A stretch of 64,000 bases of DNA from an archaeon UBA583 (lineage in GTDB: Archaea; Nanobdellota; Nanobdellia; Woesearchaeales; UBA583), in contig DAXK01000025.1 of NCBI GenBank assembly GCA_002506365.1, positions 34,692-98,691 of the forward strand. The letters are read 5' to 3'. Of this stretch, positions 2,906 through 40,000 are shown one piece after another (positions within the stretch are counted from its first letter, which is position 1; the number at the start of each line of letters is the position of its first letter). A program made the translations under genes and the position numbers. The notes under the pieces were generated by a model. That model made no database searches. It saw only the letters and a list, made by a program, of their open reading frames with translations, and was not told the origin of the DNA.

Positions 2906-5900
2906 ATGGATTTAAAAAAATCTCTCAAAATAATATTTATGCTAACTTTATTTTTTCAAGTAAGTTACGCATTTGATTTAGATTCATTAATTAACTCTTA
3001 CGATTATACTTTTGAAAACGGAGTGGTTAATGTAGTACAAACGCAAGATAGTTTAATTGATACAAATCAAAATAACCTAACAGATAAATTAGAATTTAAT
3101 ATTGAAACAAATATATTTAATTCTAATTTAACAAATTACACAATAAGTGTGATATTAGATAATAAAAATTATATCTCCGAATATGTGAATTTAGAATCGA
3201 CTTTTTCAAAGATTCAAATTCCAACATATTTATTAAATGAAAATCAATATAATTATACAATTGAAATTAAAAATCAATTTAATTCAGTTGTATTTAGAAT
3301 GGATAATTATCAAACACAAATTTTAGATAATTACGAAACAGGATTTAATTTATATTCAACAATAGACAAATTAAATTTAGAAAATGAAATTCAATTCGAC
3401 TTAGAGTTTTCACAAATTCCAGAATTTGAAAATAAACAAGTTACTTTATTTTTAGAATACAATAACCAAACTTTAATTTATTCAAAAGAAGTTTTATTTG
3501 AAAATCCAAATCAATTAATTTCATTTAATATTCCAAAAGAAAATATTTTCCAAACAAAACACACAGGGAAATTTAAGTTAAAATCAATACTAGTAGATAA
3601 TAAAAGAATTTATTTAGATAATTATACAACAGATAGTTATTCATACATTGAATTTACAAATAAAAGTTTTATCACATCACAAGATTACTCTTTAGAAGAT
3701 TTAGATAATAATTCTTTATATGAAAAACTAAATATTAATTTTAACTTAAACATTGTTGAACAATCAAATTATGAAATAACATTTTCATTATTTGACTCAA
3801 ACAATAATTTTGTAAATACTTATTCAATTCAAAATGAATTAACAAATACAAATAATATTTTAACTCACTCATTTGACGGTGAAGAATTTTACAGAACTAA
3901 AATTAATGGACCATACACAATTAAAAATATTTATTTAAAACAAATAAATCAAAATTTAAATACTTCAGAAGTTATTGATGTTTCAAAAAATGAAATTACA
4001 ACTGAGCAAATTTCATACTTACAATTTGAAAAACCAACATTACCTGAATTAAATACTAAATTAATTACAACATTTGATGAATTAACAAATCAAACACAAT
4101 TAATTGTAATTGTAAATAACAATGGAACTTTCCCAGCATTTAATTTTAATTTAGAATTATTTAACTCAAAAGAATTTAGTTTCTCAGATAATATAATGTT
4201 TTTAAATACTGGTGAATCCATTAATTATTCATTTATATTTAACAATACAAATGGGTCTGAATTATATACATCATTAATTGATTCAAATAACTTTGTTGAT
4301 GAACTAAATGAAGAAAACAATCAAAACCAAATTAAAGGAATTGAACAAATTATTGACCAATCAGTTTGTGGACTAGAAAAATTACCAAACAAATTGATTT
4401 TTATAGATAGTAATTGTAATCCAATTATAAACGCTAGAGTAAATCTTCTAAAAGAAACTGGAACATATATTAAATATCTAAGAACAGACTCAAACGGAAT
4501 TGTTGACTTTTCAAATGATATATCACTAAATGGAAATAAATTCCAAATTGACCACAATGGAGCTAAATTTACAACAGAAATAAATAGTTTATTCAATGGT
4601 TCAATAATCCAATCTAAAGCATATTCATTAAAAGTTCTAGATAACAATAATGAACCAATTAAAAATGCGAGAATTAATCTCCTAAAAGAAACTGGGACAT
4701 ACATTAAATATCTAAGAACAAATGAAAATGGAACAGTTACTTTCCAAGTTGTACCAAACGCAAATATGAAGTTCCAAATTGATTACAACGGAGCCAAATA
4801 TTCAATGCCAGTAAACAACGATAATCAAATTAAAATTAATACAAAAGGATATTCACTAAAAGTTCTAGATAACAATAATGGACCAATTTCAAATGCAAGA
4901 GTAAATCTCCTAAAGGAATCAGGAACATATATTAAATATCTAAGAACAGATTCAAACGGAATTGTAACTTTCCAAAATGTACCAAATGCAAAACAACAAT
5001 TTCAAGTTGATTATAACGGAGCTAAATATTCAATGTATGTAAACAATGACACTCAAATTACAATTAATACTAAAGCATACTCTCTAAAAGTTTTAGATAA
5101 TAATAATGAACCAATTAATAATGTAAGAGTAAATCTCCTAAAAGAATCAGGAACATACATTAAATATCTAAGAACAGATTCAAACGGAATTGTAACTTTC
5201 CAAAATGTACCAAATGCAAAACAACAATTTCAAATTGATTACAACGGAGCTAAATATTCGATGTATGTAAACAATGACACTCAAATTACAATTAATACTA
5301 AAGCATACTCCCTAAAAGTTTTAGATAACAATAACAAACCAATTTCAAATGCGAGAGTAAATCTCCTAAAAGAAGCTGGAACATATATTAAATATTTAAG
5401 AACAGACACAAATGGAATTGTCACGTTTCAAAATGTGCCTAATGCAAAACAAAAATTCCAAATTGACCACAACGGAGCTAAATATTCAATACCAGTAAAT
5501 AATGACACTCAAATTACATTAAACACATTAGGATATTCATTAAAAGTTTTAGATAACAATAATGAACCAATTAACAATGTAAGAGTAAACTTACTAAAAG
5601 AATCTGGAACTTACATCAAATATTTAAGAACAGATTCAAATGGAGTTGTAACTTTCCAAAATGTACCAAATGCAAAACAACAATTTCAAATTGACCATAA
5701 TGGAGCAAAATATTCAATACCTGTAAATAACAATTCACAAATCATTATGAATACAAAGGGTTATTCATTAAAAGTTTTAGATAACAATAATGAACCAATT
5801 AATAATGTAAGAGTGAATTTACTAAAAGAGTCTGGGACTTACATCAAATATTTAAGAACAGATTCAAATGGAGTTGTAATTTTCCAAAATGTACCAAATG

Positions 5901-6484
5901 CAAAACAACAATTTCAAATTGACCACAATGGAGCAAAATATTCAATGCCAGTAAATAATGATACACAAATCACAATAAATACAAAAGCATATAGTTTGAA
6001 CCTAATTAATAGTCAAAACCTACCAATTAATAATGCTAGAGTAAATTTATTAAAATCATCAGGAACATACATCAAATACAAAAAAACAAATACAAATGGA
6101 ACAGTAATATTCCAAGTGGTACCAAATGCTAATCACAAATTCCAATTAGATTATAATGGAGATAAATATACTAGCCAATCAGTCTCAAACACAGAACCAA
6201 TTAGTGTTCAAACTTTTTCATTCGGAGGATTATTTGTTGATAGTTCATGTACTCCAACTGAAAATGTAAGATTTAATTTATTAAAAGAATCTGGAACATA
6301 TGTAAAAAATTTAAAAACTAATGGTTTAGGGGAAGGATCTTTTGAAGTTGTTCCAAATGCAAATATGAAAATTCAAGTTGACCATAATAGTCTTAAAGAA
6401 ACAACACAAGTATATTCAATTAATCAAAATACAAATTTAAATATTCAAACTTCACACAATTTAGGATGTTATAATAATTCTTAA
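2906..6484 (+). CDS. Secreted 1192-aa adhesin-like protein: signal peptide, CARDB-like segment, nine tandem carboxypeptidase-regulatory-like (prealbumin-fold) repeats
   Basis: ORF track. N-terminal hydrophobic signal IIFMLTLFFQVSYA. CARDB-like segment VNNNGTFPAFNFNLELFNS...DELNEENN. Repeat consensus YSLKVLDNNNEPINNVRVNLLKESGTYIKYLRTDSNGIVTFQNVPNAKQQFQIDYNGAKY. Confidence 0.85.
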   Translation: MDLKKSLKIIFMLTLFFQVSYAFDLDSLINSYDYTFENGVVNVVQTQDSLIDTNQNNLTDKLEFNIETNIFNSNLTNYTISVILDNKNYISEYVNLESTFSKIQIPTYLLNENQYNYTIEIKNQFNSVVFRMDNYQTQILDNYETGFNLYSTIDKLNLENEIQFDLEFSQIPEFENKQVTLFLEYNNQTLIYSKEVLFENPNQLISFNIPKENIFQTKHTGKFKLKSILVDNKRIYLDNYTTDSYSYIEFTNKSFITSQDYSLEDLDNNSLYEKLNINFNLNIVEQSNYEITFSLFDSNNNFVNTYSIQNELTNTNNILTHSFDGEEFYRTKINGPYTIKNIYLKQINQNLNTSEVIDVSKNEITTEQISYLQFEKPTLPELNTKLITTFDELTNQTQLIVIVNNNGTFPAFNFNLELFNSKEFSFSDNIMFLNTGESINYSFIFNNTNGSELYTSLIDSNNFVDELNEENNQNQIKGIEQIIDQSVCGLEKLPNKLIFIDSNCNPIINARVNLLKETGTYIKYLRTDSNGIVDFSNDISLNGNKFQIDHNGAKFTTEINSLFNGSIIQSKAYSLKVLDNNNEPIKNARINLLKETGTYIKYLRTNENGTVTFQVVPNANMKFQIDYNGAKYSMPVNNDNQIKINTKGYSLKVLDNNNGPISNARVNLLKESGTYIKYLRTDSNGIVTFQNVPNAKQQFQVDYNGAKYSMYVNNDTQITINTKAYSLKVLDNNNEPINNVRVNLLKESGTYIKYLRTDSNGIVTFQNVPNAKQQFQIDYNGAKYSMYVNNDTQITINTKAYSLKVLDNNNKPISNARVNLLKEAGTYIKYLRTDTNGIVTFQNVPNAKQKFQIDHNGAKYSIPVNNDTQITLNTLGYSLKVLDNNNEPINNVRVNLLKESGTYIKYLRTDSNGVVTFQNVPNAKQQFQIDHNGAKYSIPVNNNSQIIMNTKGYSLKVLDNNNEPINNVRVNLLKESGTYIKYLRTDSNGVVIFQNVPNAKQQFQIDHNGAKYSMPVNNDTQITINTKAYSLNLINSQNLPINNARVNLLKSSGTYIKYKKTNTNGTVIFQVVPNANHKFQLDYNGDKYTSQSVSNTEPISVQTFSFGGLFVDSSCTPTENVRFNLLKESGTYVKNLKTNGLGEGSFEVVPNANMKIQVDHNSLKETTQVYSINQNTNLNIQTSHNLGCYNNS
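4394..6481 (+). repeat. Nine in-frame tandem repeats of about 228 bp (76 aa) inside the 1192-aa gene
   Basis: I verified unit starts at 4622, 4850, 5078, 5306 and 5990, an exact 228-bp period. Units 3/4 and 6/7 are almost identical at nucleotide level over more than 100 nt. The first and last two units are diverged. Confidence 0.95.
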
Positions 6485-6578: not shown

Positions 6579-7901
6579 ATGTACGATATTATTCTAGGTC
6601 GGTCAAAAGGAGACCAAAAAAAATACGGAAAAAAAGGAACAGTATATATTGGAAAACAATATATTCAAATGGGAAACGAATCCTCATTATCCAATCCAAT
6701 TTATATGGATGTTGCCCGTGCCCACGCAATGCTAATAGTAGGAAAAAGAGGAGGGGGGAAATCCTATACTATGGGATCACTAGCCGAAGGACTAGCAGAT
6801 ATGGAACCAGAAGTTGCTGAAAACTTAGCCTTTGTTTTAATGGATACCATGGGAGTTTATTGGTCAATGAAATACGCCAACGAAAAAGAAGATGAACTTC
6901 TAAAAAGATGGGGACTTGAAGGAAAAGGACTTGATGTTCAAATCTATGTGCCAGGTGGATTTTATAATAAATACAAAGAAGATGGAATCCCAGTAGACTT
7001 CCCACTATACATTCAACCAAGAGAACTTTCGGTTGAAGACTGGATGCAAGTATTTAAATTACAATCAGATAATTTTATTTCAGTAATTATTTCAAAAATT
7101 GTTGGAGACCTTCTAACCACAAATAATAATTTCTCAATTGACGATATTATTAATAAAATTAATTCCTACGACAGAATTGATGATAAAGAAAAACTAACAG
7201 CATCAATGCGTTTTGAAAACACAAAAAACTGGGGAATTTTCTCAACAACAGCTACAAAAATTAAAGACTTACTACACGGAGGAAAAGTAACTGTAATTGA
7301 TTATTCTCCATTTGTAGCTTTACCTGGTGGTTGGGAAGTTAAAGCATTAGTATTAGGACTAATTTCAAAAAAGATTTTTGTAGAAAGAATGCTTGTAAGA
7401 AAAAATGAAGAAAAACAACAAATCTCTGCAAAAACTCAAGTAGTTCAAGAACTAGAAGAAATTGATGATATTCCAATGCCTTGGTTAATTGTAGACGAAG
7501 CACACGAATTCTTACCAAGAGGAGCAGACGATGAAGTTCCATCAAGTAAAGCTCTAATTACAATTCTAAGAGAAGGACGTCAACCAGGAGTAAGTTTAAT
7601 TTTAGCAACACAACAACCAGCTAAAATCCACACTGATGCAATCACACAATCTGACATCGTTTTAGCCCATAGAATTACTGCAAGTTTTGACCTTGAAGCA
7701 CTAGATAAAATCTTTTTATCCTATGATAGTAAAGGAAGTAAAGCACTATTTAACTCAATGCCAAGAACAAAAGGATGTGCAATTATCATGGACGATAAAA
7801 ACGAAAGACTACACACAATGCAAGTTAAACCAAGAATTAGTTGGCACGGTGGAGAAGACCCAAACGCAATCAGAGAAATAGAAGACGAATTTGATTTCTA
7901 A
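6579..7901 (+). CDS. HerA/DUF87-family P-loop ATPase (FtsK-HerA superfamily)
   Basis: Walker A VGKRGGGKSYT. Walker B WLIVDEAHEF. Distal LILATQQP and AHRI motifs typical of archaeal HerA-like (COG0433-type) ATPases. Confidence 0.75.
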   Translation: MYDIILGRSKGDQKKYGKKGTVYIGKQYIQMGNESSLSNPIYMDVARAHAMLIVGKRGGGKSYTMGSLAEGLADMEPEVAENLAFVLMDTMGVYWSMKYANEKEDELLKRWGLEGKGLDVQIYVPGGFYNKYKEDGIPVDFPLYIQPRELSVEDWMQVFKLQSDNFISVIISKIVGDLLTTNNNFSIDDIINKINSYDRIDDKEKLTASMRFENTKNWGIFSTTATKIKDLLHGGKVTVIDYSPFVALPGGWEVKALVLGLISKKIFVERMLVRKNEEKQQISAKTQVVQELEEIDDIPMPWLIVDEAHEFLPRGADDEVPSSKALITILREGRQPGVSLILATQQPAKIHTDAITQSDIVLAHRITASFDLEALDKIFLSYDSKGSKALFNSMPRTKGCAIIMDDKNERLHTMQVKPRISWHGGEDPNAIREIEDEFDF

Positions 7902-8289: not shown

Positions 8290-9513
8290 ATGAAAAAAAA
8301 CTCTTTGAAAGCAAAATTAACTGGAATTTTACCAGATGATGTAATTAACAAAGTAAATAGAAGTTTTGAAGTTGTTGGAGACATTGCAATTATTGAAATC
8401 TCTGAAGAACTAGAACAATATGAAAAACAAATTGGAGAAGCTTTACTACAAGTAAATGTTTCACTAAAAACAATTCTAAAAAAATCAGGAATTCACCACG
8501 GAGAATTTAGAACTCAAGATTTAGTATATGTAGCCGGTGTTGAAAAATACGAAACTGAATACTTAGAAAACGGAGTAAGATTTAAACTAAATCCTGGAAG
8601 AGTTTACTTCTCAGCAAGATTATCTACTGAAAGATCAGATCTTATGAGTATGCTTGATGAAAATCAAAGAGTATTAGTAATGTTTAGTGGTGCTGGACCA
8701 TATTCACTAACAGCACTAAAAATGAAACCAAACTTACCACTATTAACAGCTATCGAAATTAATCCTAACGGACACAAATACGCTACAGAAAGTTTAGCCC
8801 TAAATAAAAATATTTTAAAAAAAACAAAACAATACCAAAGTTTTCTAAAATTTGTAAAATCTCATAAACTTCCAGTTTTAGAAAAAAACACACTACCAAT
8901 GTTTAACAAAACAAAAGTAAACTTCATTAATGGAAATGTAAGAATTGAAACAAGAGAATTTCATTCAAAATTTGCTGATAAAAAGATTGAATTTTACGAC
9001 AACAATATTTTTGATTACGAATTTAAAAATATCTATCACATCCTAGACCAACTAAAAGATACTAAGATTAATATCGATGTATCAAAAATTCACAAAATTG
9101 ATGAATTTATTAATTTTTTTATTTTATTTTTCGACAAATTTCAATGGACTGCAAAAATCGAAAATAAAGATTATGTTTTTGAAAACTCAATTGAAAAAGC
9201 AGTATTTTTAGAATATTTAAGAAATCAAGAAAATAGAAAAATCGAAGAATTACACAAATATGATGAAATATATATGCCATTACCAAAAGATGCTGAATTA
9301 TTCCTAGATTGCGCATTTAGAAGTGCTGCTCCAGGTGCAATTGTCCATATGTATGACTTTGTCCATGAAAATGATTTCCCAAGTAAATCAGAAAATGCCG
9401 TAATTAAATCAGCTGAAAAAAATAATGTTAAAGTTGAAATTATTGAAACAAGAAAAGTAGGACAATACTCCCCAAGAAAATATAGAGTGTGCTGCGATTT
9501 CAAAGTTTTATAA
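8290..9513 (+). CDS. trm5: tRNA (guanine37-N1)-methyltransferase Trm5/Taw2-like (Met-10+ family) with large internal insertions
   Basis: FEVVGDIAIIEI, GVRFKLNPGRVYFSARLSTER, VLVMFSGAGPYSL, AIEINP and IYMPLPKDAELFLDCA match the Trm5/Taw2 order of motifs. The ORF track starts at GTG 8275. The ATG at 8290 (MKKNS) is the more likely start. Confidence 0.75.
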   Translation: MKKNSLKAKLTGILPDDVINKVNRSFEVVGDIAIIEISEELEQYEKQIGEALLQVNVSLKTILKKSGIHHGEFRTQDLVYVAGVEKYETEYLENGVRFKLNPGRVYFSARLSTERSDLMSMLDENQRVLVMFSGAGPYSLTALKMKPNLPLLTAIEINPNGHKYATESLALNKNILKKTKQYQSFLKFVKSHKLPVLEKNTLPMFNKTKVNFINGNVRIETREFHSKFADKKIEFYDNNIFDYEFKNIYHILDQLKDTKINIDVSKIHKIDEFINFFILFFDKFQWTAKIENKDYVFENSIEKAVFLEYLRNQENRKIEELHKYDEIYMPLPKDAELFLDCAFRSAAPGAIVHMYDFVHENDFPSKSENAVIKSAEKNNVKVEIIETRKVGQYSPRKYRVCCDFKVL

Positions 9514-9578: not shown

Positions 9579-10622
9579 TTAAGCTAATCCTTCATAATAC
9601 CCTTGTAAATCCAAATCATAATTATTTTGTGCATACTTTGGACCATTATACTTTTTAGCAATTTGTTGATAATTTTTATTTTTCATATCATTAATAATTC
9701 CATTTTCTTCCAAAAACTTAAAAAAATAATTAATCATAGCATTTGAATCTTTAACTTTAGATAACAATAAATCAGCATCATCACTATTTTCATATCTAAC
9801 AATATTAGACCCTAACATTTGTGAAAAACCAAAACTTGAACTCTTAAAAGCAACAATATCATTAGCATCAAAAGCTTCTACAAAAGCATCATAATTTGTT
9901 TCCTTAGAAACTCTACTAAATGATTCTCCATTTTTTAAAGTGCAATCCACATCATCAAAACCTCTATTTTCTTCATTAAATTTATGACATTCAAATCTAA
10001 CTGATTTTTCAAAAGTTCTCCTATATCCATCCTCTTTAATAATTATGGCATAAATTAAATTCACATCAACATTATTTTTACTAGCATAAGTTTCAAATTG
10101 ATTTTTATTCAAATCATAAAAAATACTAGATTTAAACTTTTCAATTTTAGTAAGCATACTCCCCGTTAACTCAACAACATTAGTTTCAGAATTTAAAACA
10201 GCTCCATCTGAAATTGAATCAAAATCCCAAATATTATCATTATCAACCCCACTTAAAGCTTTTTCAATTTGAGTAAATAAAACACCACAATTTAATTTTT
10301 CATAATCCTTATGATTTTTATCATTACATTTAGTATAATACGAATTTAAAGAATTCCAAGTTGCAGTTTCCTGTTCATTACAACTCTCCAAAGTATCATC
10401 ATTACAAACTTTAACATTACAATTTGACTTTGAAATTTCACATTTTTCAATAATACTCTTTAACTTAAAATCAGAAATACCACCCTCCGCAGTATCAGAA
10501 ACTTCTGAAAACTGAGAAATAACTAACAAAACAACAATTAAAAGTAAAAAAAAACCAACTAACTTTGAAATAGATAACTCTACTCCTTTTTTATTAAAAG
10601 AAAAAATATTTTGAATAGACAT
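9579..10622 (-). CDS. Membrane-anchored protein with a C-terminal DUF3380-type N-acetylmuramidase-like domain
   Basis: N-terminal anchor NKKGVELSISKLVGFFLLLIVVLLVISQF. The C-terminus SSFGFSQMLG...YQQIAKKYNGPKYAQNNYDLDLQGYY resembles the SWGxFQIMG...YNGPxYxxNxYDxKL signature of phage/bacterial DUF3380 muramidases. Confidence 0.6.
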   Translation of the reverse strand: MSIQNIFSFNKKGVELSISKLVGFFLLLIVVLLVISQFSEVSDTAEGGISDFKLKSIIEKCEISKSNCNVKVCNDDTLESCNEQETATWNSLNSYYTKCNDKNHKDYEKLNCGVLFTQIEKALSGVDNDNIWDFDSISDGAVLNSETNVVELTGSMLTKIEKFKSSIFYDLNKNQFETYASKNNVDVNLIYAIIIKEDGYRRTFEKSVRFECHKFNEENRGFDDVDCTLKNGESFSRVSKETNYDAFVEAFDANDIVAFKSSSFGFSQMLGSNIVRYENSDDADLLLSKVKDSNAMINYFFKFLEENGIINDMKNKNYQQIAKKYNGPKYAQNNYDLDLQGYYEGLA

Positions 10623-10627
10623 TTTAT

Positions 10628-12106
10628 CTATCCCTTAATAACTGGAAAACTTTGGTAATACTTTCTAGTTTTACCATTATTTTTCACTTCAATCTCTAAA
10701 TCTGGTAATCTTACATCACCTAAAATACCTCTTTTATTAACTAAATTAAAACCTAATAATCTTGTATCTCCTCTTTCAAATCTAGTAAAATCCCAAACTA
10801 ATTTATACTGAGTATCACCCTTTAAAACATGTTTAGGTTCAGTTAAAGAAAAAGATTCATCCTTTACTTGTAAATAAGCAGGCATTCTGAAAATAATTTT
10901 TAATTTATCAATTTCATGTTCCTTAATATTCTCAAAACCAATTCTAACCTTAAACCCTTTAATTCCCTCATGAGATACTCTCTCAACTTCAAATAACTGA
11001 TTTTTAACAGCTAAAGGATTTGAATTCTTTCTAACATAAATATAACTTAAAATAATTCCAATTACAACAACTACAATAAATAAAGCTAAATAATTAAAAG
11101 AATAAGTAAAAGTTTTAGTTTGCCCTTTTTCTAAATTAACTTCAAAACCTACTCCATTTTCAGTTGAGAAATATTTTTCAGCATCAGTCCCAAATAATAA
11201 ACTTCTAAAAAATCCAAACTCTAATTCATCTTTATACGTATCAACCTCATTTCCTAAATTAGTAACTGAAATTTCAACTCTATCAGAAAATAAACCAGTC
11301 CCCCTATTTGATTTAACATCAATATTTTTATAAGAAGCAACTTTTAAATCAGAAACTGAATACCACTCTTGAGCAGATTCCCCTCCATCTTTTAAAACTC
11401 TAACAGTAACTTTAGCAAGATAATCACCTGGATTTAAAGAAGATGGAACATCTAACTGATAAATTTTATAACTAACATCTGATGTGAAAACATCTTCAAA
11501 AGTATCAAATTTATAATCTCCTAAACTAACAGAAACTTCTACATTTTGATCCTTAACAACAGCCTCAGAATTTACTGTAAACTTTAAAGCATTAACTGGA
11601 GACACATCAGTTTTTTGAATTTTAGTTGAAAACTTTAAATTATCCTTAGTTGGTTTAATATTAATACTATAAGTTAAAGAAACATCATCAGCTCCAATAA
11701 TTGTTACAGGAAACTCAAAAAAACCTGAATAATCTTCATTATTTTGAGAAATTTTAATTAAATTTGGACTAACTACATTTGGCGTATAATCAAAAGCTGA
11801 ATTTGCTTTTAATTCTAACTTTAAACTAACTTTTTCCCCTGCATTTAACTTAACATTTTTTTCACTTAAAGAAATATCCCATCCACTAATAGATGCAACA
11901 TTAAAATCAATATTTTGAACTTCATTTAAATTATTTTTAACTGTAAAAAAAAACTCACTCTCAATATGATTATTATAAACCTCGGAACTTAAAGTATTTA
12001 CCTCAACCTCAAATGCTCCATTTTCATTATAAACGTTATTTCCAAAAATAGAAACAAAAGAAAATAGAAATAAAAAAATAAAATTTAAACTTTTAAAATG
12101 TGTCAT
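10628..12106 (-). CDS. Type-I membrane protein: signal peptide, beta-rich CARDB-like ectodomain, one TM helix, about 125-aa cytoplasmic domain
   Basis: The ORF track extends to 12166, but that extension overlaps the TFB 3' end. The internal start MTHFKSLNFIFLFLFSFVSIFG gives a clean signal peptide. TM helix LALFIVVVVIGIILSYIYV. Function unknown. Confidence 0.6.
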   Translation of the reverse strand: MTHFKSLNFIFLFLFSFVSIFGNNVYNENGAFEVEVNTLSSEVYNNHIESEFFFTVKNNLNEVQNIDFNVASISGWDISLSEKNVKLNAGEKVSLKLELKANSAFDYTPNVVSPNLIKISQNNEDYSGFFEFPVTIIGADDVSLTYSINIKPTKDNLKFSTKIQKTDVSPVNALKFTVNSEAVVKDQNVEVSVSLGDYKFDTFEDVFTSDVSYKIYQLDVPSSLNPGDYLAKVTVRVLKDGGESAQEWYSVSDLKVASYKNIDVKSNRGTGLFSDRVEISVTNLGNEVDTYKDELEFGFFRSLLFGTDAEKYFSTENGVGFEVNLEKGQTKTFTYSFNYLALFIVVVVIGIILSYIYVRKNSNPLAVKNQLFEVERVSHEGIKGFKVRIGFENIKEHEIDKLKIIFRMPAYLQVKDESFSLTEPKHVLKGDTQYKLVWDFTRFERGDTRLLGFNLVNKRGILGDVRLPDLEIEVKNNGKTRKYYQSFPVIKG

Positions 12107-13061
12107 CTTTTCCATCATCCTCTTTAGATTTAGATTTAGCCTTGATTTTTTTAATTTCATCCTCAAGATCTAACTTTTGAATAATTTCCTTATATCTATT
12201 TCTAATTGTAACCTCAGTCACACCAGAAACATCTGAAATATCTCTTTGAGTTCTTCTCTCACCCTCTAATAAACCTGCAATATATAATGCTGCTGCAGCA
12301 ATTCCAATTGGACCTCTACCAGAAGTTAACTCTAAAGATAATGCTTGTGATAAAATTTCAACTGCTCTTGACTGTGTTTCAGGTCCATATTTTAAAACAC
12401 TTGCAAATCTTGAAATATAATCAACTGGATTTGATGGTAAAATTTTAATTCTTAATTCTCTTGTAATATATCTATAAGATCTTCCAATTTCCTTTTTATC
12501 AATTCCTGAAGCTTCAGCAATCTCATCTAAAGTTCTAGGAATATTTTGTCTTCTACAAGCAGCATACACAACTCCTGCAACAACACTCTCAATTGATCTT
12601 CCACGAACTAAATTCTTTTGAACAGCTTCAGTATAAATCTTTCCAGCCTCTTCTTCAATTGATGTTGGTAAATTCAAAAATGAAGATAAACGACGAAGTT
12701 CTCCTAAAGCAATCTTTAGGTTCTTCTCCATAACTGTAGACAATCTTTTTTGCCATCTCTTTAATCTTTGAAGTTTATATCTTTGTTTCTTATCTAAAGA
12801 AAAAGCATCACTCTCAGACCCAATAGAAGTTCCCATACCCATATCATACTTTGTATATGATGTTGGAGCACCAGATCTTCTCATCTCAGAATCATCTCCC
12901 TCTTCAAAGTCTCTCCATTCCTTTCCTAAAGAAATATTTTTTGCATCAATTAATAAACCACAACTTCTACAAATCATTTCCCCTCTATCTTTATCATTAT
13001 AAAGATTAGTTCCACCACACTCTGGGCATTTTTTTAAATTATCTGATCCTACCATTATCAA
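12093..13061 (-). CDS. tfb: Transcription initiation factor B (TFB/TFIIB)
   Basis: N-terminal zinc ribbon CPECGG...CRSCG followed by two cyclin-fold repeats (AACRRQNIPRTLDEIA, AAALYIAG). The ORF-track start is TTG. An ATG lies two codons downstream. Confidence 0.95.
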   Translation of the reverse strand: MIMVGSDNLKKCPECGGTNLYNDKDRGEMICRSCGLLIDAKNISLGKEWRDFEEGDDSEMRRSGAPTSYTKYDMGMGTSIGSESDAFSLDKKQRYKLQRLKRWQKRLSTVMEKNLKIALGELRRLSSFLNLPTSIEEEAGKIYTEAVQKNLVRGRSIESVVAGVVYAACRRQNIPRTLDEIAEASGIDKKEIGRSYRYITRELRIKILPSNPVDYISRFASVLKYGPETQSRAVEILSQALSLELTSGRGPIGIAAAALYIAGLLEGERRTQRDISDVSGVTEVTIRNRYKEIIQKLDLEDEIKKIKAKSKSKEDDGKDDTF

Positions 13062-13235: not shown

Positions 13236-13436
13236 TTATTCTCTCCCAATTAATAAATCTCCACCATTAATAGTTTTTCGACCACTATGTGTAGATATTT
13301 TTGAAGCCTTTAAAGATAATTCATATAAATAATGTTCTAAAATTTTCTTTAATTCTTCCTTAGCATCCTCAGAAACTCTTTCAGCACCCTTGTCCTTCAT
13401 TAATCTTTCAAGAGCTAATAATGGTAATTTTGCCAT
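13236..13436 (-). CDS. Archaeal histone (HMf-type histone fold)
   Basis: 66 aa. LPLLALERLMKDKGAERVSEDAKEEL...HSGRKTINGGDL matches the archaeal histone pattern. Confidence 0.9.
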   Translation of the reverse strand: MAKLPLLALERLMKDKGAERVSEDAKEELKKILEHYLYELSLKASKISTHSGRKTINGGDLLIGRE

Positions 13437-13688
13437 TTATAAATCCCCCTTTACTTGATTAAATGCAAGTGTTACATCTTTAGACTTTACTGTCTTTCTT
13501 CCTGAATGCTCTGCTAATAAAACCGCTTTTTTAATAATTTTTTCAGTTACATCTTCTAAAATTGTTGCAGCAGTTTGCTTAGCATCTTTAGAAACTCTCT
13601 TACCCGTTGCTTCTTGAATTAAAGCTCCTAACGGTGCAAATGGTAAAATATTTTCTCTCTTGACCATAATAATATATTCATAAGACAT
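13437..13688 (-). CDS. Archaeal histone (HMf-type); the probable start is the internal Met (MVKRENILPFAP)
   Basis: LPFAPLGALIQEATGKRVSKDAKQTAATILED...AEHSGRKTVKSKDV. Its stop TAA directly abuts the ATG of the next histone gene. Confidence 0.9.
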   Translation of the reverse strand: MSYEYIIMVKRENILPFAPLGALIQEATGKRVSKDAKQTAATILEDVTEKIIKKAVLLAEHSGRKTVKSKDVTLAFNQVKGDL

Positions 13689-31166: not shown

Positions 31167-34100
31167 TTATAATTGACTAATAATCATTCTAACATAAAAA
31201 CTTGGATGTCCTTTTTGTAATAAAGTATTCAAAATATCATCATCTGAAATACCTCTACTCTTTAAAGACTTAATTAAATGAACTAAATTTTGTTCATAAT
31301 CAGCCATATTAGATACTAAACTTGTAGAATCAATCTTTGGAGCAGGTAAAACATCTTGCTTAACTCTTAAATCATTTAAATCATCTCTAACAAAAGTAAT
31401 TTCTTTCTCTAAACTATTTTTCATTAAATCAAAATCACGAACTCTCTTAACAACTTCTGATCCCGCAAAATTAATTCTATTAATATGTGTATCAACTAAA
31501 TTTACCTTATCAGTCATTAATTCTTTAACTTCCTTCATTAAATCCTCAACTTCATCAACAACAATACCTTTAAAATTTGTAAACTCTTCATTAATATCAA
31601 GCATCTTTCTATTCATAGATTGCTCTAAATTAACAATTTTATCATCAGTTAACTCTCTTAACTCAGCTTCAAGTTTTTGGAAATCATCCATCAGCTCATT
31701 TTCACGATTTGATAAAGCATCAACCTTAGATTTATTTTCTTCCTCAATTTGTAAAATTCTTGAATTAAAAGAAGACTCTAAAAACATTAATCTTTCTTCA
31801 ACTTTAGTATTTAACTCATTCTTTAAAGCTAAATTATCTTCAACTAACTCCCTTTCTCTTTGAGAAATTGACTTAATTCTCTCATTTGCTTCATCCTCAA
31901 TTGCAATAATTCTTGAATTAAAAGAAGACTCTAAATTCATAACTCTCTCCTCAATCCTCTCATTTACATTTTGACTTAAATCACTTAAATCCTCAACAAA
32001 TTCTCTTTCCCTTTGAGAAATAAATAATAATCTTTGTTCAGAATCAGTCTCAAACTTAGAAACTTTCCCAGTAAATGTTTTTTCTAAATCATCAAACTTT
32101 TTATCAATAATTCCACCAAATTCTTCATTAATATTTGTAAAACTCTCAACAAATTCCTCCTCTCTTTTTTCAAGAGTTAAAACTCCACTCTCAATTTTTT
32201 TCTCAATTCTCTTTTCAAAAGAAATAACACTTTGAGTTAAATCATCTTCCCTAGACTCAACCATCTCAACTTTCTTCTCAACAGTTTGAACTTTACTATT
32301 AATTGAATCTTCAACAATCTTTAACATATCTAAACTTTGTTCAACTCTATCCTCAACAAACTTTAAATTTTTATCAACAAACTTTTTCTCAATTGCTTCT
32401 AATTTTTCCTTTTGAAAATTAAATAAATTATTTACTTTCTCATTAAAAGTATCTCTAAATCTATCCTCATTAGCTTGAGACTTCTCTTTTTCTAACATAA
32501 TAACTTCAGAAATTGAATCTCGTATAGAATTACCAAAAGTTTCAATATCTAACTTTCTAGCTTTTGTAGTCTCCTCTAACTCCCCAACAAAAACATCTTT
32601 CTCAACTTCTAAATTTCTCTCCTCAGTCTTAATTTTATTTAATTGTTCATCTAAACTCTCAACATACTCTTTTGTATGATTAGCAATTTCAGCCTTAAAC
32701 TTCCCAAGTTCAGAAATCGCAACATTTTTTTCATCCTCTAAAGTTAATAACTTTTTCAAAAACTCTTCTTCCTTTAATTTTAATTCATGTTCAAATTTTT
32801 CTAAACTTAAATTAAATTCTTCCTCACTTTTTTTAATTGAAAAAATTACTTTATCTTCAACATCAGCTTTCAAATCAGACCTAAAATCATTAGTCTCAGC
32901 TTTAATCTTAGTTAATTGATCAGAACAAACAGTAACTTGTTTTGCTAAAACTTCTTCAACTTCAACTCTTAAACTATCAAAAACCTCACCAGATTTTTCC
33001 ATATCTCTAGCAATTTCTCTCTTAGAACTTGAAAGTAACTCAACAATCTCAGAATGAATCTCAGTTCTCTCATTTTGAAGTAATTCTCTCTCATGATTAA
33101 TAGCTTCAACCTTTCCAGATAAAGATTCTTCTTGAATTTTTAACCTTTGTTCAAAATTTTCAATATGAACTTCAAATTGTCTATCAAACTCCTCAACTTG
33201 TTCTTTTAATTTTGCAGATACAACATTTGCTAAAGAAGTTTCAATATCCTTATTCTCAATTTCAAACTTTTGAAAAATTGAATCAATTCTTAATTGAGTT
33301 GTTTGAATAGACTCTGAAAATCTTTCCTCAAAACTTTCCTTTTCCTTCTCTAAACTTTCTCTCTCAAAATTCACTAAATTTAAACTCTTCTCAAACTTTT
33401 CCTCAACTTTAGCTACTTTCTTTTCAAACTTTAAAAAATTAGAATCATACTTTTTATTAAATTTCTCAATTTGAACATTTAATTTTTTAGTAACAGTCTC
33501 AAACAATCCAGCTTTTACATCCTTATTTGATTCCTTAACTGACAAAATAGCTTCCTTAACTTGATTTTTAGACTCAATAAATAATTTTGAAAATTTCTCA
33601 TTAAAATTATTTCTCTCATTTGCTAACCCTTCCCTATCTAAAGATAATTTTTTAATTTCTGAATCTAACATTAAATCTCGCGCATCCAATTCTTTCTCAA
33701 AACTATTTAACTCATCACTTAAAGTTTTCTTAAATTCATCAACTTGTGATAATAATCTTCCTTCAACTTCATGTTTTAAAATATCAAACTTTTGATTATT
33801 ACTATCCTCAATCCTACTTAAAGTATCATTATTAATTTTAACTTGATTATCTAACTCAAACTCTACATTACTTTTCGTATCAGACACTAAAGAACTAAAC
33901 TTATCCTCTAAACTAACTGCGATATTTTCTAAATCTTTTCTATCCTTAGTTAACTGTTTAATTTCAGAACTAAACTTTAAATCTCTTGCATCTAATTCTT
34001 TTGTAAAATTAATTAATTCTGTATCTAAACTTTTTTTAAAATCATTAATTTGAGTAAACAACTTTTCCTCAACACTATCTTTTAAATCTTTTAACTTTTC

Positions 34101-35261
34101 CTTTGAATCTAATTCAACTCTCGCTAAAGTTTCATTATTAACCTTAATTTGATTATCTAAATCAAATTTAATTTGTGCTTCCGCCTTAAAGATTTTATCT
34201 TTAATATCCTTATTAAAAATTTTCTTTTCTTTTTCTAAATCAAGTTTTTTCAAAAGTTCATCCATTTCAGCTTTAAAAGCTGTGATTTTATTTTCTAAAA
34301 CTGAAACATCCATCCCAATTTGAATCTTAACTTTTTGCATAAAATCTTTCTCTTTTAAAGTTAAATCAGATTCCCTATTTGACAAAACTTTCAATTCCTT
34401 ATCTAAAGACTCAATATAATTTTTAACATGATTTGACAAATCAGCCTTAAAAACTTTTAATTCAGATTCTAAATCATTTTCCTTTTTACTAAAATCTTGA
34501 TGATTAGCTTGTAATTCAATTTCAATTCTATGTAATAATTCCTGTCTAATTTTTTTCTCAACTTGCTCAAATTGATTATCAACATTTAACTCAAAATTAC
34601 CAAATACTTTTTTTTGATTCTCAGTAAATTCATCTTCAAATAAATTCACCTTATCAACAACTTCATTAACCTTACCTACAATAAATTGTGCTTGCCTTCT
34701 TTCCTCCTCACGAATTTCAACACTATTTTTTTCCTCAAACTTTTCATTACTCTTAATTAAATCATTAATTGATTTTTTCATATCAGAAATTTCTAAATCT
34801 GTTTTTTTATGTAAAGCAATTGTAGACTCAATAGCTTTTGATAATTTAGAAGAAATTAAACCCTCAATACTAATTTGTAAATCCTCTGAAACATTTTTCT
34901 TAAAAGTTTCAAATTGTTTTTGTAAATTAGAATTAGTCTTTAATCCATCTAATAATTTATCCTCAAAACTCTCCAAAATATTTGTAAACTTTTTATGTGA
35001 TTTTTTATGTTTAAAATCAAACTCACCTTTTAATTTATCAAACTCATCCTCTAAAATTAAATTAAATTCTTTACTAACTTCCTTTTTAATTTTAGGCATA
35101 CTTAATTTTTTTAAAATCGGATTAACTTCATCTAAAATTTCAGATTTCAAATTAGTCAAAATATCTTCATTTTTAATAGTTGTAGATTTTTTAGAAATTG
35201 TTTTTTTAGCTGTTTTAGTTCCAGCTGTTTTCTTAACGATACTCATAACATTTTTTAGCAT
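31167..35261 (-). CDS. Giant 1364-aa cytoplasmic coiled-coil protein with modular internal repeats
   Basis: E/K/L-rich heptad-like sequence throughout, with no signal peptide or TM helix. Repeated modules, e.g. FTKELDARDLKFSSEIKQLTKDRKDL versus FEKELDARDLMLDSEIKKLSLDREGL, and LESSFNSRIIAIEDE versus LESSFNSRILQIEEE. Short globular tail GISDDDILNTLLQKGHP. Confidence 0.8.
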   Translation of the reverse strand: MLKNVMSIVKKTAGTKTAKKTISKKSTTIKNEDILTNLKSEILDEVNPILKKLSMPKIKKEVSKEFNLILEDEFDKLKGEFDFKHKKSHKKFTNILESFEDKLLDGLKTNSNLQKQFETFKKNVSEDLQISIEGLISSKLSKAIESTIALHKKTDLEISDMKKSINDLIKSNEKFEEKNSVEIREEERRQAQFIVGKVNEVVDKVNLFEDEFTENQKKVFGNFELNVDNQFEQVEKKIRQELLHRIEIELQANHQDFSKKENDLESELKVFKADLSNHVKNYIESLDKELKVLSNRESDLTLKEKDFMQKVKIQIGMDVSVLENKITAFKAEMDELLKKLDLEKEKKIFNKDIKDKIFKAEAQIKFDLDNQIKVNNETLARVELDSKEKLKDLKDSVEEKLFTQINDFKKSLDTELINFTKELDARDLKFSSEIKQLTKDRKDLENIAVSLEDKFSSLVSDTKSNVEFELDNQVKINNDTLSRIEDSNNQKFDILKHEVEGRLLSQVDEFKKTLSDELNSFEKELDARDLMLDSEIKKLSLDREGLANERNNFNEKFSKLFIESKNQVKEAILSVKESNKDVKAGLFETVTKKLNVQIEKFNKKYDSNFLKFEKKVAKVEEKFEKSLNLVNFERESLEKEKESFEERFSESIQTTQLRIDSIFQKFEIENKDIETSLANVVSAKLKEQVEEFDRQFEVHIENFEQRLKIQEESLSGKVEAINHERELLQNERTEIHSEIVELLSSSKREIARDMEKSGEVFDSLRVEVEEVLAKQVTVCSDQLTKIKAETNDFRSDLKADVEDKVIFSIKKSEEEFNLSLEKFEHELKLKEEEFLKKLLTLEDEKNVAISELGKFKAEIANHTKEYVESLDEQLNKIKTEERNLEVEKDVFVGELEETTKARKLDIETFGNSIRDSISEVIMLEKEKSQANEDRFRDTFNEKVNNLFNFQKEKLEAIEKKFVDKNLKFVEDRVEQSLDMLKIVEDSINSKVQTVEKKVEMVESREDDLTQSVISFEKRIEKKIESGVLTLEKREEEFVESFTNINEEFGGIIDKKFDDLEKTFTGKVSKFETDSEQRLLFISQREREFVEDLSDLSQNVNERIEERVMNLESSFNSRIIAIEDEANERIKSISQRERELVEDNLALKNELNTKVEERLMFLESSFNSRILQIEEENKSKVDALSNRENELMDDFQKLEAELRELTDDKIVNLEQSMNRKMLDINEEFTNFKGIVVDEVEDLMKEVKELMTDKVNLVDTHINRINFAGSEVVKRVRDFDLMKNSLEKEITFVRDDLNDLRVKQDVLPAPKIDSTSLVSNMADYEQNLVHLIKSLKSRGISDDDILNTLLQKGHPSFYVRMIISQL

Positions 35262-37005: not shown

Positions 37006-40000
37006 CTAATTATTTTTCCTTAAATAAAAACTAATTGAACCTTTATTTTTACTAACTCCATTATCAAAAATATCATAATCCAAAGTTAATTTTGGTGTTT
37101 GAGAACTTCCAAAAAAATAATCCCAACCAGAACCAGTTGTTGAAACTAAATTATTATCTTCTAAAATATCAAAAATTAAACCTAACTCATCATTATTAAT
37201 AAAATTCTCAAATTTTTTTGAATCCACTGAAATTAAACCTTTATCTCCAAAATCCAATCTATCCACACTCAATCTAAACTCTCCACTCATCTTATCAGAA
37301 CGATAATTCCCTCCAAAAATAAATTCTAATTTTAAATCTAATGAACTTGAATCTAAATCAACAGGATAATTATCATTATTATCTAAACTTGTAATATCAA
37401 AATAATATTTATTAGCAACATTTGATTCCTTACTTAAAGTAAAACTTATTTTTTCTTCACGAGTATTAACTGGAACATTTGAAATAATATTCCCTTCCTC
37501 ATCAGTTCCCGCATTCGGATTATAATTTTTAAAAGTTTCAACTGAAGAAATTAAATCTACATTTGAATACTCAATCATCTTTAAATTCACATTACAAGAA
37601 CCTGGACTCACACTAGCACTCTTAAAACTAATTTGTTTTCCACTTCTAGATTCTAAACCTCCAATATATGATCCATTTTGAGGAATTAATTCAACTTTAA
37701 AATCTATATTACTTAATTCACCACCATAACTAATTTGTAATTTATTAGTCATATTTGCTTTAAATACAATATATTTATCTTCATCCGAACCATGAACCTC
37801 TTTAGGTTCAGATGTCTCATCAACTCCATCAATAACAATACTAGTTGGAGTAAAAGTTACAACTTTATCCTTATCTGTTGAAGTAATTTTAACAAAATAA
37901 GCTCCTTCACCAGTATGAGTTGCAACTAAACCAGAACTATCGCCAACTAAAGGTAACTCTTCAAATAATTGATTAACAACAAATCCTTTACCTAATTTAT
38001 CATTTTCAATTCTAATAAAACCAATTTCATTTTTCTTAGTTTTTTCAGCATGTAAATAATATTCATTATCTTTTCCTTCATTACAAACTCCATAATAAAC
38101 AATTGCAGCATCATCAGTATATAAATTTAAATCAGGTGATGTGAATTTAATTTTCCCTGAAACTGATTCTCCTGAATAAAATGGTTTAGGAGTAATTGAA
38201 GACTCAGAACTTCTTGGAACAATTCTTGACTTACTAGTATCAATTGTAAATAAATTACTTTCACTTGAATCTCCAAAAATTGAATCACACTTAAACCCAG
38301 CACCAGCACCTAATAACCCAGCTGAAAAAGAACACTGAGCAAATAAAGTTTCAGCCTTATGAGCAATTGGAAACTCTTGAACCTTAGTTTGTTTTGTTCC
38401 CTTCATATCATAACTATGTGTAATTCTTAACTTATTATACCAAACTCTAGCAGGAGCTTCAGTAATAATTTGAGACTCTTGTTTACTTCCACCATCTCTA
38501 ACAATTAAAGTTTTAGACTTAAAACTACCAGCATTAACTTCAGAACTTACAATAACTCCCTCATCTGGACAAAATTCAGAATTATCATATCCCTTATCAC
38601 AAATTAATTCAATCTTTGAAGTAATTGCTTGACCACCAGATAACGCTCCATAAGTAAATAAATATCTAATTGATAACTGACCTGTAACTGGGTCATAACC
38701 TTGTAATCTGGATTCAGGAAATGGAGGTCCAAAAGTTGGTTCAACTTCATTAGCTTCAATTGAACTTAAAATATTTTCAGTTAAAGCAGACCAATCCCCA
38801 GTAATTGCTCCTAAACAAGCTTTATTAATAATACTATCAGAACTTAAACCACTTTGAGATAAAATTGAACCATCATAACGACTTTCAAACTTTTCCTTAT
38901 TTTTATTCATTTGACCAAAAAAATCAAAAGTAGGTTTTCTCTCACCAGAACCTTCAGCCCCAGACTGTGAGTTATAAGATTGTTGTAATTCAGGTAAAAT
39001 AACATTTGTTGCAACATCACAAACCGCTTGCCCAAATAATCTTTGACAATAACTACCCTTAACTGTTCCAATCTTTGCTTGTTCCAAACAATCATAAATT
39101 CCTTGTTGAATTTTTAATAAATTTTTAGAATGTGAATAAGTATCAACAATTGCTCCACATCTAATAGATGATAAAATACTAACTGATGAAGACTTACCAG
39201 AAACTCCTGACTCTTGTGACCATTCACCATCTCCCTCTTCAACTGTATCAGCACCAAAAAAATTACATTTAGTATCATCAAAATTTGGAGCTCCAGCACT
39301 ATAACAAACTTGTCCCTTAAAAGCTCCAAAATTAACTGAATCAGTTTCTTTATCATAAGGCAAACACTGTTTATCAAAATCTAATTCTGCTTCAACAGTA
39401 TGTGAAAATCCACTTGAACTTTCATCAGAATATTTTTTTCCACTACCTGAAACCCACTTTCCACCAGTCACTGTATCAGTATTACAATCACCACCAACAT
39501 TTGGTTCAAATTTACCTACAACTTTATCTCCTTGAGTATAACTTACCCCATGAGAATATTCATCTTTACTCATAAATTGATCTTGCGCCCCATCACACTT
39601 ATATGGTGCAGGTAATCCAGCAATTCTATCACAAGCCATATATAACTCTCTATCAGCTTTATTATATTCAGCCTCCTTATCATCTGAATCTGATACTTCA
39701 ATTGATGCTCTATCCCAAGCATTTTGAAACTTAGCATAAGTACAATAAACAACTCCACCTAATGATGCCCATTTCATACCTTCAGTAAATTGTTCAGTAA
39801 CCTTAATTGTTTTATTCAAAAACGCTTGAGCTTTTTCAATTTTTTCAACAGACAACCAATCTTGAGTATTCTCAACAACAACTTTTGTTTGAAAATAAAC
39901 TGGATTAACTGTATCAATTGGAACATCAATTTCTTCTAACCCATAAACAATACTTAAACCAAATCCAATTTCAATTTCATCAAACCAATCTCTCTCATCT

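Follow-up and report, generated by a model that had tools for sequence, protein, structure and literature searches.

The stretch of DNA analysed here, called the window throughout, comprises 64,000 nucleotides of contig DAXK01000025.1 (positions 34,692 to 98,691; GenBank assembly GCA_002506365.1) from UBA583, an archaeon of the Woesearchaeales. An open reading frame (ORF) at 9579..10622 on its minus strand, with an ATG start and a TAA stop, encodes a protein of 347 amino acids which, by profile, by modelled fold and by aligned catalytic residues, is a member of the PF11860 (DUF3380) muramidase family, and which is predicted to be held in the membrane with its enzyme domain outside. The gene lies directly behind that of an Ig-like membrane protein, its partner, and occupies a chromosomal position, here called the slot, at which related loci carry other predicted wall-lytic domains on the same kind of anchor. 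The parts of the slot gene are given below, one to a line.

9579..10622, minus strand: slot gene, membrane-anchored PF11860 (DUF3380) muramidase; the stop codon at 9579-9581 is included
10563..10622, minus strand: residues 1-20, short N-terminal tail, predicted to be cytoplasmic from its sequence and charge count (K11, K12 and K20; positive-inside)
10509..10562, minus strand: residues 21-38, LVGFFLLLIVVLLVISQF, predicted single transmembrane helix or signal anchor (hydropathy; helix in the AlphaFold2, AF2, model)
10242..10460, minus strand: residues 55-127, Cys-rich helical stalk with C61, C68, C73, C81, W89, C99 and C112 (alignments, AF2 helices)
9582..10130, minus strand: residues 165-347, PF11860 muramidase head of the 'RFEC' clade (Pfam, fold search, clade analysis)

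The hydrophobic stretch spans 18 residues and reaches a Kyte-Doolittle maximum of 2.78 (19-residue window). All eight cysteines of the protein lie C-terminal to it, six in the stalk (61, 68, 73, 81, 99 and 112) and two (212 and 227) inside the catalytic domain. Most of them are invariant or near-invariant in alignments of the relatives, as are C73, C81, W89 and C99 across the three alignments A1, A3 and A4. This signature suggests a type-II (N-in/C-out) signal anchor followed by an oxidised extracytoplasmic domain. A 'KK[GA]' motif (K11 and K12 in the window protein) is kept among relatives and is separated from the hydrophobic stretch by seven residues, including E15 and K20. Such a spacing presumably departs from the FlaFind-type pattern of class III (type IV pilin-like) signal peptides, for which the motif and the long predicted N-terminal helix had made the protein a candidate; the anchor may be cleaved, or processed in a pilin-like manner at this motif. 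The AF2 model, built with 13 family sequences, has a mean predicted local distance difference test score (pLDDT) of 78.9, with block means mostly above 85 over residues ~160-347, and places helices in the stalk at 83-100 and 114-127. The stalk gave no match in Pfam or PDB sequence searches, and Pfam detected no known wall-binding domain (LysM, PG_binding_1 or SH3) in the 347-aa protein. By analogy with PG_binding_1, a domain of three helices, the stalk might nonetheless bind peptidoglycan.

The PF11860 'Muramidase' profile matches residues 198-344 with 72.5 bits (gathering cutoff 22.3; E=6.9e-20) and is covered from position 16 to 172 of 175; relatives of the protein score 83-134 bits. The PHROG endolysin families 2860 and 1224 were matched at E about 1e-17, and NCBIfam gave no match for the 347-aa protein. 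Its only solved sequence relatives are three phage DUF3380 endolysins, Pae87 (7Q4S/7Q4T), LysT84 (7RUM) and AP3gp15 (5NM7), found at E about 1e-9 with the single sequence and at 1e-22 to 1e-16 with the family profile. A Foldseek search of the PDB with the model returned exactly these enzymes as its top seven matches (E 4e-7 to 4e-6; TM score 0.68, normalised to Pae87), and in a viral structure library phage N-acetylmuramidases were the best named fold matches. An original prediction, made from the sequence alone, had proposed a DUF3380-type muramidase preceded by a Cys-rich region and an N-terminal KKG plus hydrophobic anchor, and all of these elements are borne out. The prediction was right about the family of the C-terminal domain and wrong about its length: the ~110 residues it gave are the best-conserved C-terminal part of a catalytic domain of about 180 residues (~165-347).

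The catalytic machinery of this family is known from phage enzymes. In AP3gp15, Glu101 lies in the motif NEV-E-SKG and the exchange E101A removes 99.4% of activity (PMC5674055); the second glutamate, Glu118, is the counterpart of Pae87 Glu46. In Pae87 the catalytic residues are Glu29, equivalent to Glu101, and Glu46, the exchanges E29A and E46A strongly reduce muralytic activity, and His48 and Tyr174 are conserved in the cleft (PMC8972805). Hydrolysis of the bond between N-acetylmuramic acid (MurNAc) and N-acetylglucosamine (GlcNAc) has been demonstrated for phage members only (PMC5674055, PMC8972805). A HMMER alignment to Pae87, with the residue mapping corrected for the 20-residue tag of the 7q4s chain, pairs E197 with Glu29, E211 with Glu46, H213 with His48 and Y335 with Tyr174.

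10032..10034, minus strand: codon (GAG) of E197, equivalent of the general-acid Glu (Pae87 Glu29, AP3gp15 Glu101); HMMER alignment
9984..9992, minus strand: E211-C212-H213 ('RFECH'), with E211 equivalent to Pae87 Glu46 and H213 to His48; HMMER alignment
9942-9944, minus strand: C227, conservation partner of C212; domain alignment
9618..9620, minus strand: codon of Y335, equivalent of the Pae87 cleft residue Tyr174; HMMER alignment

Over the aligned domains, the E197 column holds Glu in 132/134, that of E211 Glu in 133/134 and that of Y335 Tyr in 133/134. The original prediction had named a significant profile match and a conserved catalytic Glu among its checks, and the protein has both, keeping E197 and E211 as well as H213 and Y335.

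Within PF11860 the protein belongs to a distinct group. An exhaustive HMMER search gave 748 representatives at E<1e-3 (10 at E<1e-30), and the best 156 were analysed. Around the second glutamate, 51 of these best 156 representatives carry the motif 'RFEC', where phage enzymes have 'FERH', and an N-terminal transmembrane segment is present in 46/51 RFEC members versus 6/98 of the others. A neighbour-joining tree of 134 domains groups all RFEC sequences (45/45) in a single clade that contains no other sequence. The original prediction had looked to a phylogeny for the donor lineage; the tree resolves the clade, is a crude distance tree and names no donor, and its outgroup sequences, taken from the exhaustive HMMER search, come without names or genomic context. 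Both C212 and C227 are Cys in 45/45 domains inside the clade and in 0/89 outside it. The co-conservation of this pair and its limitation to the anchored clade suggest an extra disulfide, an adaptation to life outside the cell. Sampling of the lineage is thin: clustering at 50% identity leaves about 25 clusters that align with the protein over most of its length, a word-indexed homologue search with the family profile added one new protein only, and a single GTDB species representative, a Nanoarchaeia metagenome-assembled genome (MAG), carries the gene.

Some RFEC members depart from the common architecture. P0039 (752 aa) has two PG_binding_1 domains, and P0078, at 1877 aa, carries its muramidase at the extreme C-terminus. 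In P0025 (576 aa) the C-terminus is extended by a stretch whose H..G.A.D-like motif resembles M15 peptidases and is not detected by Pfam. P0003 (jgi, 7.6-kb contig, 55% identity) is without ~19 residues spanning the catalytic E197 region, and is either a decaying allele or an artefact of assembly or gene calling.

Upstream of the slot gene, in the same orientation, lies the partner.

10628..12118, minus strand: partner gene, 492-496 aa, Ig-like membrane protein (homologues, AF2 model, synteny)

Its stop codon is 5 nt upstream of the ATG of the slot gene, and the two genes are probably co-transcribed. The AF2 model (pLDDT 84.6) predicts a signal-like N-terminal helix, about three beta-sandwich (Ig-like) domains, a transmembrane helix at 339-360 and a C-terminal beta-sandwich domain across the membrane from the Ig-like ones, which is presumed to be cytoplasmic. 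The majority-residue fraction is 0.77 in this C-terminal domain compared with 0.50 in the ectodomain. Homologues fall into 37 clusters, some of them labelled Nanoarchaeota. Our guess, from the model, is that the partner is an adhesin or a scaffold that positions the hydrolase. Neither this co-oriented gene of ~492 aa nor the cassette-like polymorphism of the locus figured in the original prediction.

With the partner gene as bait, its 37 clusters and 8 further metagenome loci gave 18 distinct loci. In 18/18 of these the partner stop is followed, at a distance of -4 to +27 nt, by the start of a gene whose product is anchored at its N-terminus, and the heads of these products are of different types: PF11860 in 7, VgrG3-C-like in 5, SLT-like in 4, and Amidase_2 and DUF2272 in 1 each.

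PF11860 head: window (72.5 bits), L004-L007, L018 (partial; 74.8 bits) and L023 (109.5 bits)
SLT-type head: L020 (46.5 bits), L011 (19.8 bits), L008 (18.5 bits) and L013 (13.5 bits); cutoff 21.3
T6SS_VgrG3-like_C-type head: L022 (27.9 bits), L021 (23.3 bits), L012 (19.2 bits), L017 (17.8 bits) and L016 (no match); cutoff 27
Amidase_2 head: L019 (73.2 bits)
DUF2272 head: L010 (58.8 bits)

DUF2272 is a papain-like domain that has been grouped with NlpC/P60, CHAP and Tse1-type amidases (PMC10318531). The assignment of the VgrG3-C-like heads is tentative, and their profile found no sequence relative in the PDB. The exhaustive HMMER search likewise returned several representatives that match only over the N-terminal 120-150 residues, and whose C-termini are SLT (P0146, 28.4 bits), Peptidase_M15_3 (P0068, 54.2 bits) or unassigned. 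Most head types share a stalk pattern C..C..C..W..C..C (alignment A4). No such pattern can be seen in L013, L020, L021 or the partial L018.

Closely related loci show where the exchange takes place. Between L022 and L023, which come from one sample, DNA identity is 92-100% through the 3' end of the partner gene and ~45 codons into the slot gene, drops to ~40% over the next ~950 bp of stalk and head, and recovers to 82-100% past the stop codon; the L022 head is VgrG3-like and that of L023 is PF11860. Similarly, P0011, with a PF11860 head, and P0013, with an SLT-like one, hardly differ over residues 1-120 and are unrelated beyond them, and P0013 is located in the same locus of TFB, ~492-aa partner and slot. 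The anchor is the most conserved part across swaps. No cognate immunity gene was found downstream of the head, where the convergent gene TYW2 directly follows the slot gene, and none would be needed in a producer that is free of murein. Judged by these alignments, the locus is a polymorphic effector slot, with a constant N-terminal module, exchangeable heads and breakpoints at the module border. We have not found described elsewhere an anchored RFEC clade in DPANN archaea, its fixed syntenic locus with a partner gene, or exchange there among up to six wall-lytic head families.

The surroundings of the locus are those of an archaeal chromosome, as the original prediction had supposed. The window has a GC content of ~25% and encodes TFB, two histones, TYW2, GatE, an SRP54-type GTPase (FtsY-like), a family-B DNA polymerase and SecY, as well as an ADP-forming acyl-CoA synthetase. 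Named relatives of the slot gene and of its neighbour are from Nanoarchaeota or Nanoarchaeia MAGs. Independent assemblies of a bioreactor metagenome (SRR1023996/PRJNA226580; whole-genome shotgun set AYRE01) by ENA, JGI and Logan each yielded this contig. The genes that border the partner and the slot are the following.

12093-13055, minus strand: TFB gene (Pfam TFIIB, Zn_Ribbon_TF)
13236..13688, minus strand: tandem pair of archaeal histone genes (66 and 83 aa), which marks the upstream border kept in related loci (Pfam, translations)
8290..9513, plus strand: TYW2/Trm5-type methyltransferase gene, the convergent, conserved downstream border of the slot (Pfam, synteny)

The order histone, histone, TFB, ~492-aa protein, muramidase is kept in relatives with muramidase identities as low as 32-55%. 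In most related loci TYW2 is convergent with the slot gene, and in L006 a Rce1-like gene is found downstream instead. The 3' end of TFB overlaps the start of the partner gene by 14-26 nt (12093-12118 in the window), an overlap that is kept in most related loci reaching far enough upstream; no TFB was called in L012. TFB, a general transcription factor, thereby stands in an apparently operon-like arrangement with genes for surface proteins.

The original prediction had also raised the possibility of a recently acquired, phage-derived enzyme, and here the results go the other way. Phage endolysins are at most 27% identical to the muramidase. The GC content at third codon positions (GC3) of the muramidase gene is 0.12, compared with 0.11-0.16 in its neighbours, and its overall GC likewise equals that of the adjoining housekeeping genes. 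No phage genes were found near the slot, where the neighbours are the histones, TFB, TYW2 and a DUF87 ATPase. In IMG/VR viral contigs no RFEC relatives were found; the scan returned only L014 and L015, high-GC bacterial phage regions whose PF11860-type endolysin is conventional, has an N-terminal extension and belongs to the 'FEPH' type, and a viral origin for the RFEC clade was rejected on this result. The endolysin of L014/L015 adjoins tail-fibre-like genes and an integrase and is unrelated to the archaeal clade. Because synteny holds down to 32% identity, GC3 is host-like, phage identity is low and IMG/VR is negative, the gene appears to be old and vertically inherited rather than newly imported from a phage; on this comparison, a transfer from bacteria or phages, if there was one, is ancient.

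Other features of the window concern its wider organisation. A DUF87 (HerA/FtsK-like ATPase) gene at 6579-7901 on the plus strand is conserved beside TYW2 in L004, L005 and L007. The TYW2/Trm5 protein is 407 aa long in the window, 404-407 aa in L004, L005, L007 and L012, and 312-313 aa in L010, L011 and L013; Pfam reports its methyltransferase domain as two separate segments, a pattern suggesting that ~95 aa have been inserted in some members of the lineage. Encoded some 3 kb away from the muramidase, a 1192-aa protein (2906-6484, plus strand) with repeated CarboxypepD_reg, Big_1, SpaA, macroglobulin and CARDB-like beta-sandwich domains is likely to be a surface or adhesin protein. Giant ORFs at 31167-35261 (minus strand, 1364 aa) and 37006-42018 (minus strand, 1670 aa) gave no Pfam match at E<=1e-4, and no SLT domain was detected in them. 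Large lineage-specific surface proteins are typical of DPANN archaea. GC skew is uniformly and strongly negative on the plus strand (cumulative -9.4 over 64 kb) and most genes are on the minus strand, consistent with a single replichore arm with no switch point within the window.

Taken as a whole, the slot gene probably encodes a contact-dependent, polymorphic murein hydrolase that is used on bacterial hosts or prey. A disulfide-stabilised muramidase would sit on the outer surface of the membrane of a DPANN (Nanoarchaeota-type) archaeon and, like the phage DUF3380 endolysins, would use its E197/E211 pair to cut bacterial murein at the MurNAc-beta-1,4-GlcNAc glycan. Tethered on a stalk of ~120 residues, the enzyme could act only on a bacterial wall in direct contact, and local thinning or breach of that wall would allow attachment, access to the cytoplasm or feeding on the bacterial host or prey. 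The anchor would be kept while the Cys stalk and head, or the head alone, are replaced by recombination with other wall-lytic enzymes, as might be expected if the bacteria attacked vary or become resistant. Interaction with or predation on bacteria, which the original prediction had suggested, is still the best reading, and it is strengthened by the other wall-lytic heads of relatives, among them Amidase_2 and M15. Amidase_2 enzymes cleave the MurNAc-L-Ala bond, and M15 peptidases cleave next to D-amino acids. These bonds are known only from murein and not from pseudomurein or S-layers. Action on bacterial walls is the simplest reading because the slot takes any murein-cleaving chemistry on a constant anchor, in a cell for which there is no reason to make murein; tethering implies action on contact, and strain-level swapping implies a changing target. 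The molecular identity of the protein and the description of the polymorphic locus are far more secure than the biological role.

Several points weigh against this reading. The hydrophobic segment may be a signal peptide that is removed, or else proteolysis or vesicles may set the enzyme free. H213 is substituted in 16/45 members of the RFEC clade, for example by Leu in P0009 and P0011, and most of the VgrG3-like heads (four of five) and of the SLT-like heads (three of four) stay below the Pfam cutoff. A fold search with the partner gave only generic tandem Ig/macroglobulin-like matches with low TM scores. As to murein synthesis genes, the genome was viewed through the 64-kb window only. Finally, the known hosts of cultivated DPANN archaea are so far all archaea.

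The same molecular evidence would also serve nutrient scavenging, in which a tethered hydrolase digests free murein debris (necromass) and the amino sugars and peptides are taken up. Tethering would hold the products near the cell, DPANN metabolism is reduced, a 'DPANN shunt' for the recycling of cell material has been put forward (PMC9723730), and the source bioreactor was rich in bacterial biomass. We nevertheless consider scavenging unlikely: strain-level swaps of bond specificity resemble an effector arms race more than a stable set of catabolic enzymes, the conserved neighbourhood contains no uptake or catabolic genes (NagA/NagB/MurQ-type), and one enzyme of a single bond type releases mostly large muropeptides. 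If the N-terminal segment is instead an export signal, the enzyme could be freed by cleavage or in vesicles and kill at a distance. Archaeal peptidoglycan hydrolases (PGHs) with signal peptides do kill bacteria (PMC12352652), and patchiness and domain shuffling mark such weaponised enzymes, with which the head polymorphism seen here would fit. A released weapon is, however, distinctly unlikely, since a segment of 18 residues that runs on into a predicted helix looks more like a signal anchor, it is the anchor that is best conserved across swaps, and the locus, which is syntenic, has been inherited vertically and is neither patchy nor on a plasmid. A lone muramidase, moreover, cannot reach the wall of a diderm from outside without contact or a permeabiliser.

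That the target is the wall of an archaeal host, such as the pseudomurein of methanogens, or the archaeon's own wall polymer, with the enzyme acting as an autolysin or in remodelling, is very improbable. The archaeal identity of all known hosts of cultivated DPANN archaea speaks for such a target, as do the methanogens that a bioreactor metagenome may contain and the fixed position beside housekeeping genes, which would suit a housekeeping role. Yet PF11860 cleaves MurNAc-beta-1,4-GlcNAc, and it is established that lysozymes spare the beta-1,3 talosaminuronic linkage of pseudomurein; Amidase_2 and M15 heads need bonds that pseudomurein is without. Free exchange of glycosidase, amidase and peptidase chemistries between close strains would be surprising in an essential autolysin, and pseudomurein-making archaea have almost no PGHs in the 2025 survey (PMC12352652). 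The remaining proposal, that of a recent prophage or viral endolysin gene, or of bacterial or phage contamination with no role in the archaeon, draws on the fact that PF11860 is best known from phage endolysins. It is effectively refuted by the low identity to phage enzymes, the absence of phage neighbours, the host-like GC3, synteny in at least 18 loci, an IMG/VR scan that gave only a non-RFEC endolysin, and three independent assemblies of the contig.

Contact-dependent attack on bacterial walls, the reading preferred here, can be extended to a more specific proposal, which we regard as doubtful. The partner and the slot gene might form a dedicated, vertically inherited, contact-dependent 'wall-piercing' module of an Ig-like partner, conserved in its cytoplasmic domain, and an anchored hydrolase, with stalk and head swapped among six murein-specific chemistries, with hosts or prey that are bacterial and not archaeal, and with a head type that tracks wall chemotype or resistance.

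Whether DPANN archaea live on bacteria or on other archaea is a question that has so far rested mainly on scattered annotations of lytic transglycosylase domains. The locus offers a sharper handle, namely a small and easily expressed enzyme with a fixed chromosomal address across a lineage. The combination of intact catalytic residues, predicted extracytoplasmic topology and head swapping is hard to explain without a living, evolving bacterial target. Tagged inactive heads as wall-binding probes, and antibodies against the partner protein, are possible reagents for finding the partner organisms. If active, the RFEC clade would also be a source of disulfide-stabilised extracellular muramidases distinct from the phage endolysins under antibacterial development.

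The closest known enzymes are the phage DUF3380 endolysins, such as Pae87 of Pseudomonas phage JG004, AP3gp15 of Burkholderia phage AP3, LysT84, and Gp110 of Salmonella phage 10. They have the same catalytic fold, and the Glu-Glu pair, the His and Tyr of the cleft and the C-terminal motif 'YNG..Y..N.YD' are common to both, at an identity of only 18-27%. The phage enzymes are soluble, cytoplasmic proteins released by holins, either monomodular or with an N-terminal PG_binding_1 domain. In contrast, the archaeal protein has a predicted transmembrane anchor, a Cys-rich stalk and a clade-specific Cys pair (RFEC...C versus FERH), and is encoded on the chromosome. Phage endolysins belong to phage or prophage lysis cassettes, and the neighbourhood of the slot gene is not of this kind.

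Attack on bacterial walls by DPANN archaea is not a new idea, because lytic transglycosylases and PGHs of such archaea have been reported before. Archaeal PGHs, among them the M23 'Woldo' enzymes of Halogranum, kill bacteria experimentally, and PGHs are enriched in Nanoarchaeota, with domain shuffling noted (PLoS Biol 2025, PMC12352652). The slot gene resembles them as an archaeal gene for an exported murein hydrolase, inferred or shown to act on bacteria. It differs in that those genes are patchy and often on plasmids, whereas it occupies a fixed, syntenic chromosomal locus with a partner gene, and its product is predicted to be anchored. The survey counted only proteins with a recognised wall-binding domain (PMC12352652). 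The 347-aa protein falls outside this modular definition, which combines a catalytic and a wall-binding domain, and would not be counted; PF11860 is not mentioned in the main text of PMC12352652 or in those of its supplements that were available to us.

Since 2013-2015, extracellular proteins of Pace- and Woesearchaeota with lytic transglycosylase domains have been taken for tools with which bacterial walls are attacked (PMC8204110; Vigneron et al. 2022, PMC9723730), and giant murein-transglycosylase proteins have been described in related groups (Castelle et al. 2021, PMC8204110). The slot protein is like these in having a glycan-strand-cleaving domain that is predicted to be extracellular and that can be read as a tool of attachment or attack. 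They are, however, SLT/GH23 enzymes in giant proteins of up to 3,000 aa, while the present family is PF11860 in anchored proteins of ~300-370 aa. They are not known to have a swappable slot or a partner gene, and SLT-like heads occur here as alleles of the slot. A GH25 muramidase of another archaeon, Aciduliprofundum boonei, is reportedly the subject of work by Metcalf and colleagues in 2014.

In its organisation the locus is most readily set beside the polymorphic effector loci of bacteria and the wall-directed effectors of the type VI secretion system (T6SS), such as the Tse1/Tae amidases and the C-terminal muramidase of VgrG3. As in those systems, a constant N-terminal module is joined to interchangeable wall-lytic heads, and some slot heads show kinship to T6SS effectors themselves, being VgrG3-C-like or, in the case of DUF2272, related by way of Tse1-type amidases. 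The slot locus differs in having neither a secretion apparatus (T6SS, type VII secretion system or contact-dependent inhibition system) nor an immunity gene. Delivery would also be unlike that of bacterial effectors, apparently by simple surface display, and the host is an archaeon. The wall-piercing module, if true, would be an archaeal counterpart of the bacterial polymorphic effector systems that works without a secretion machine or an immunity gene.

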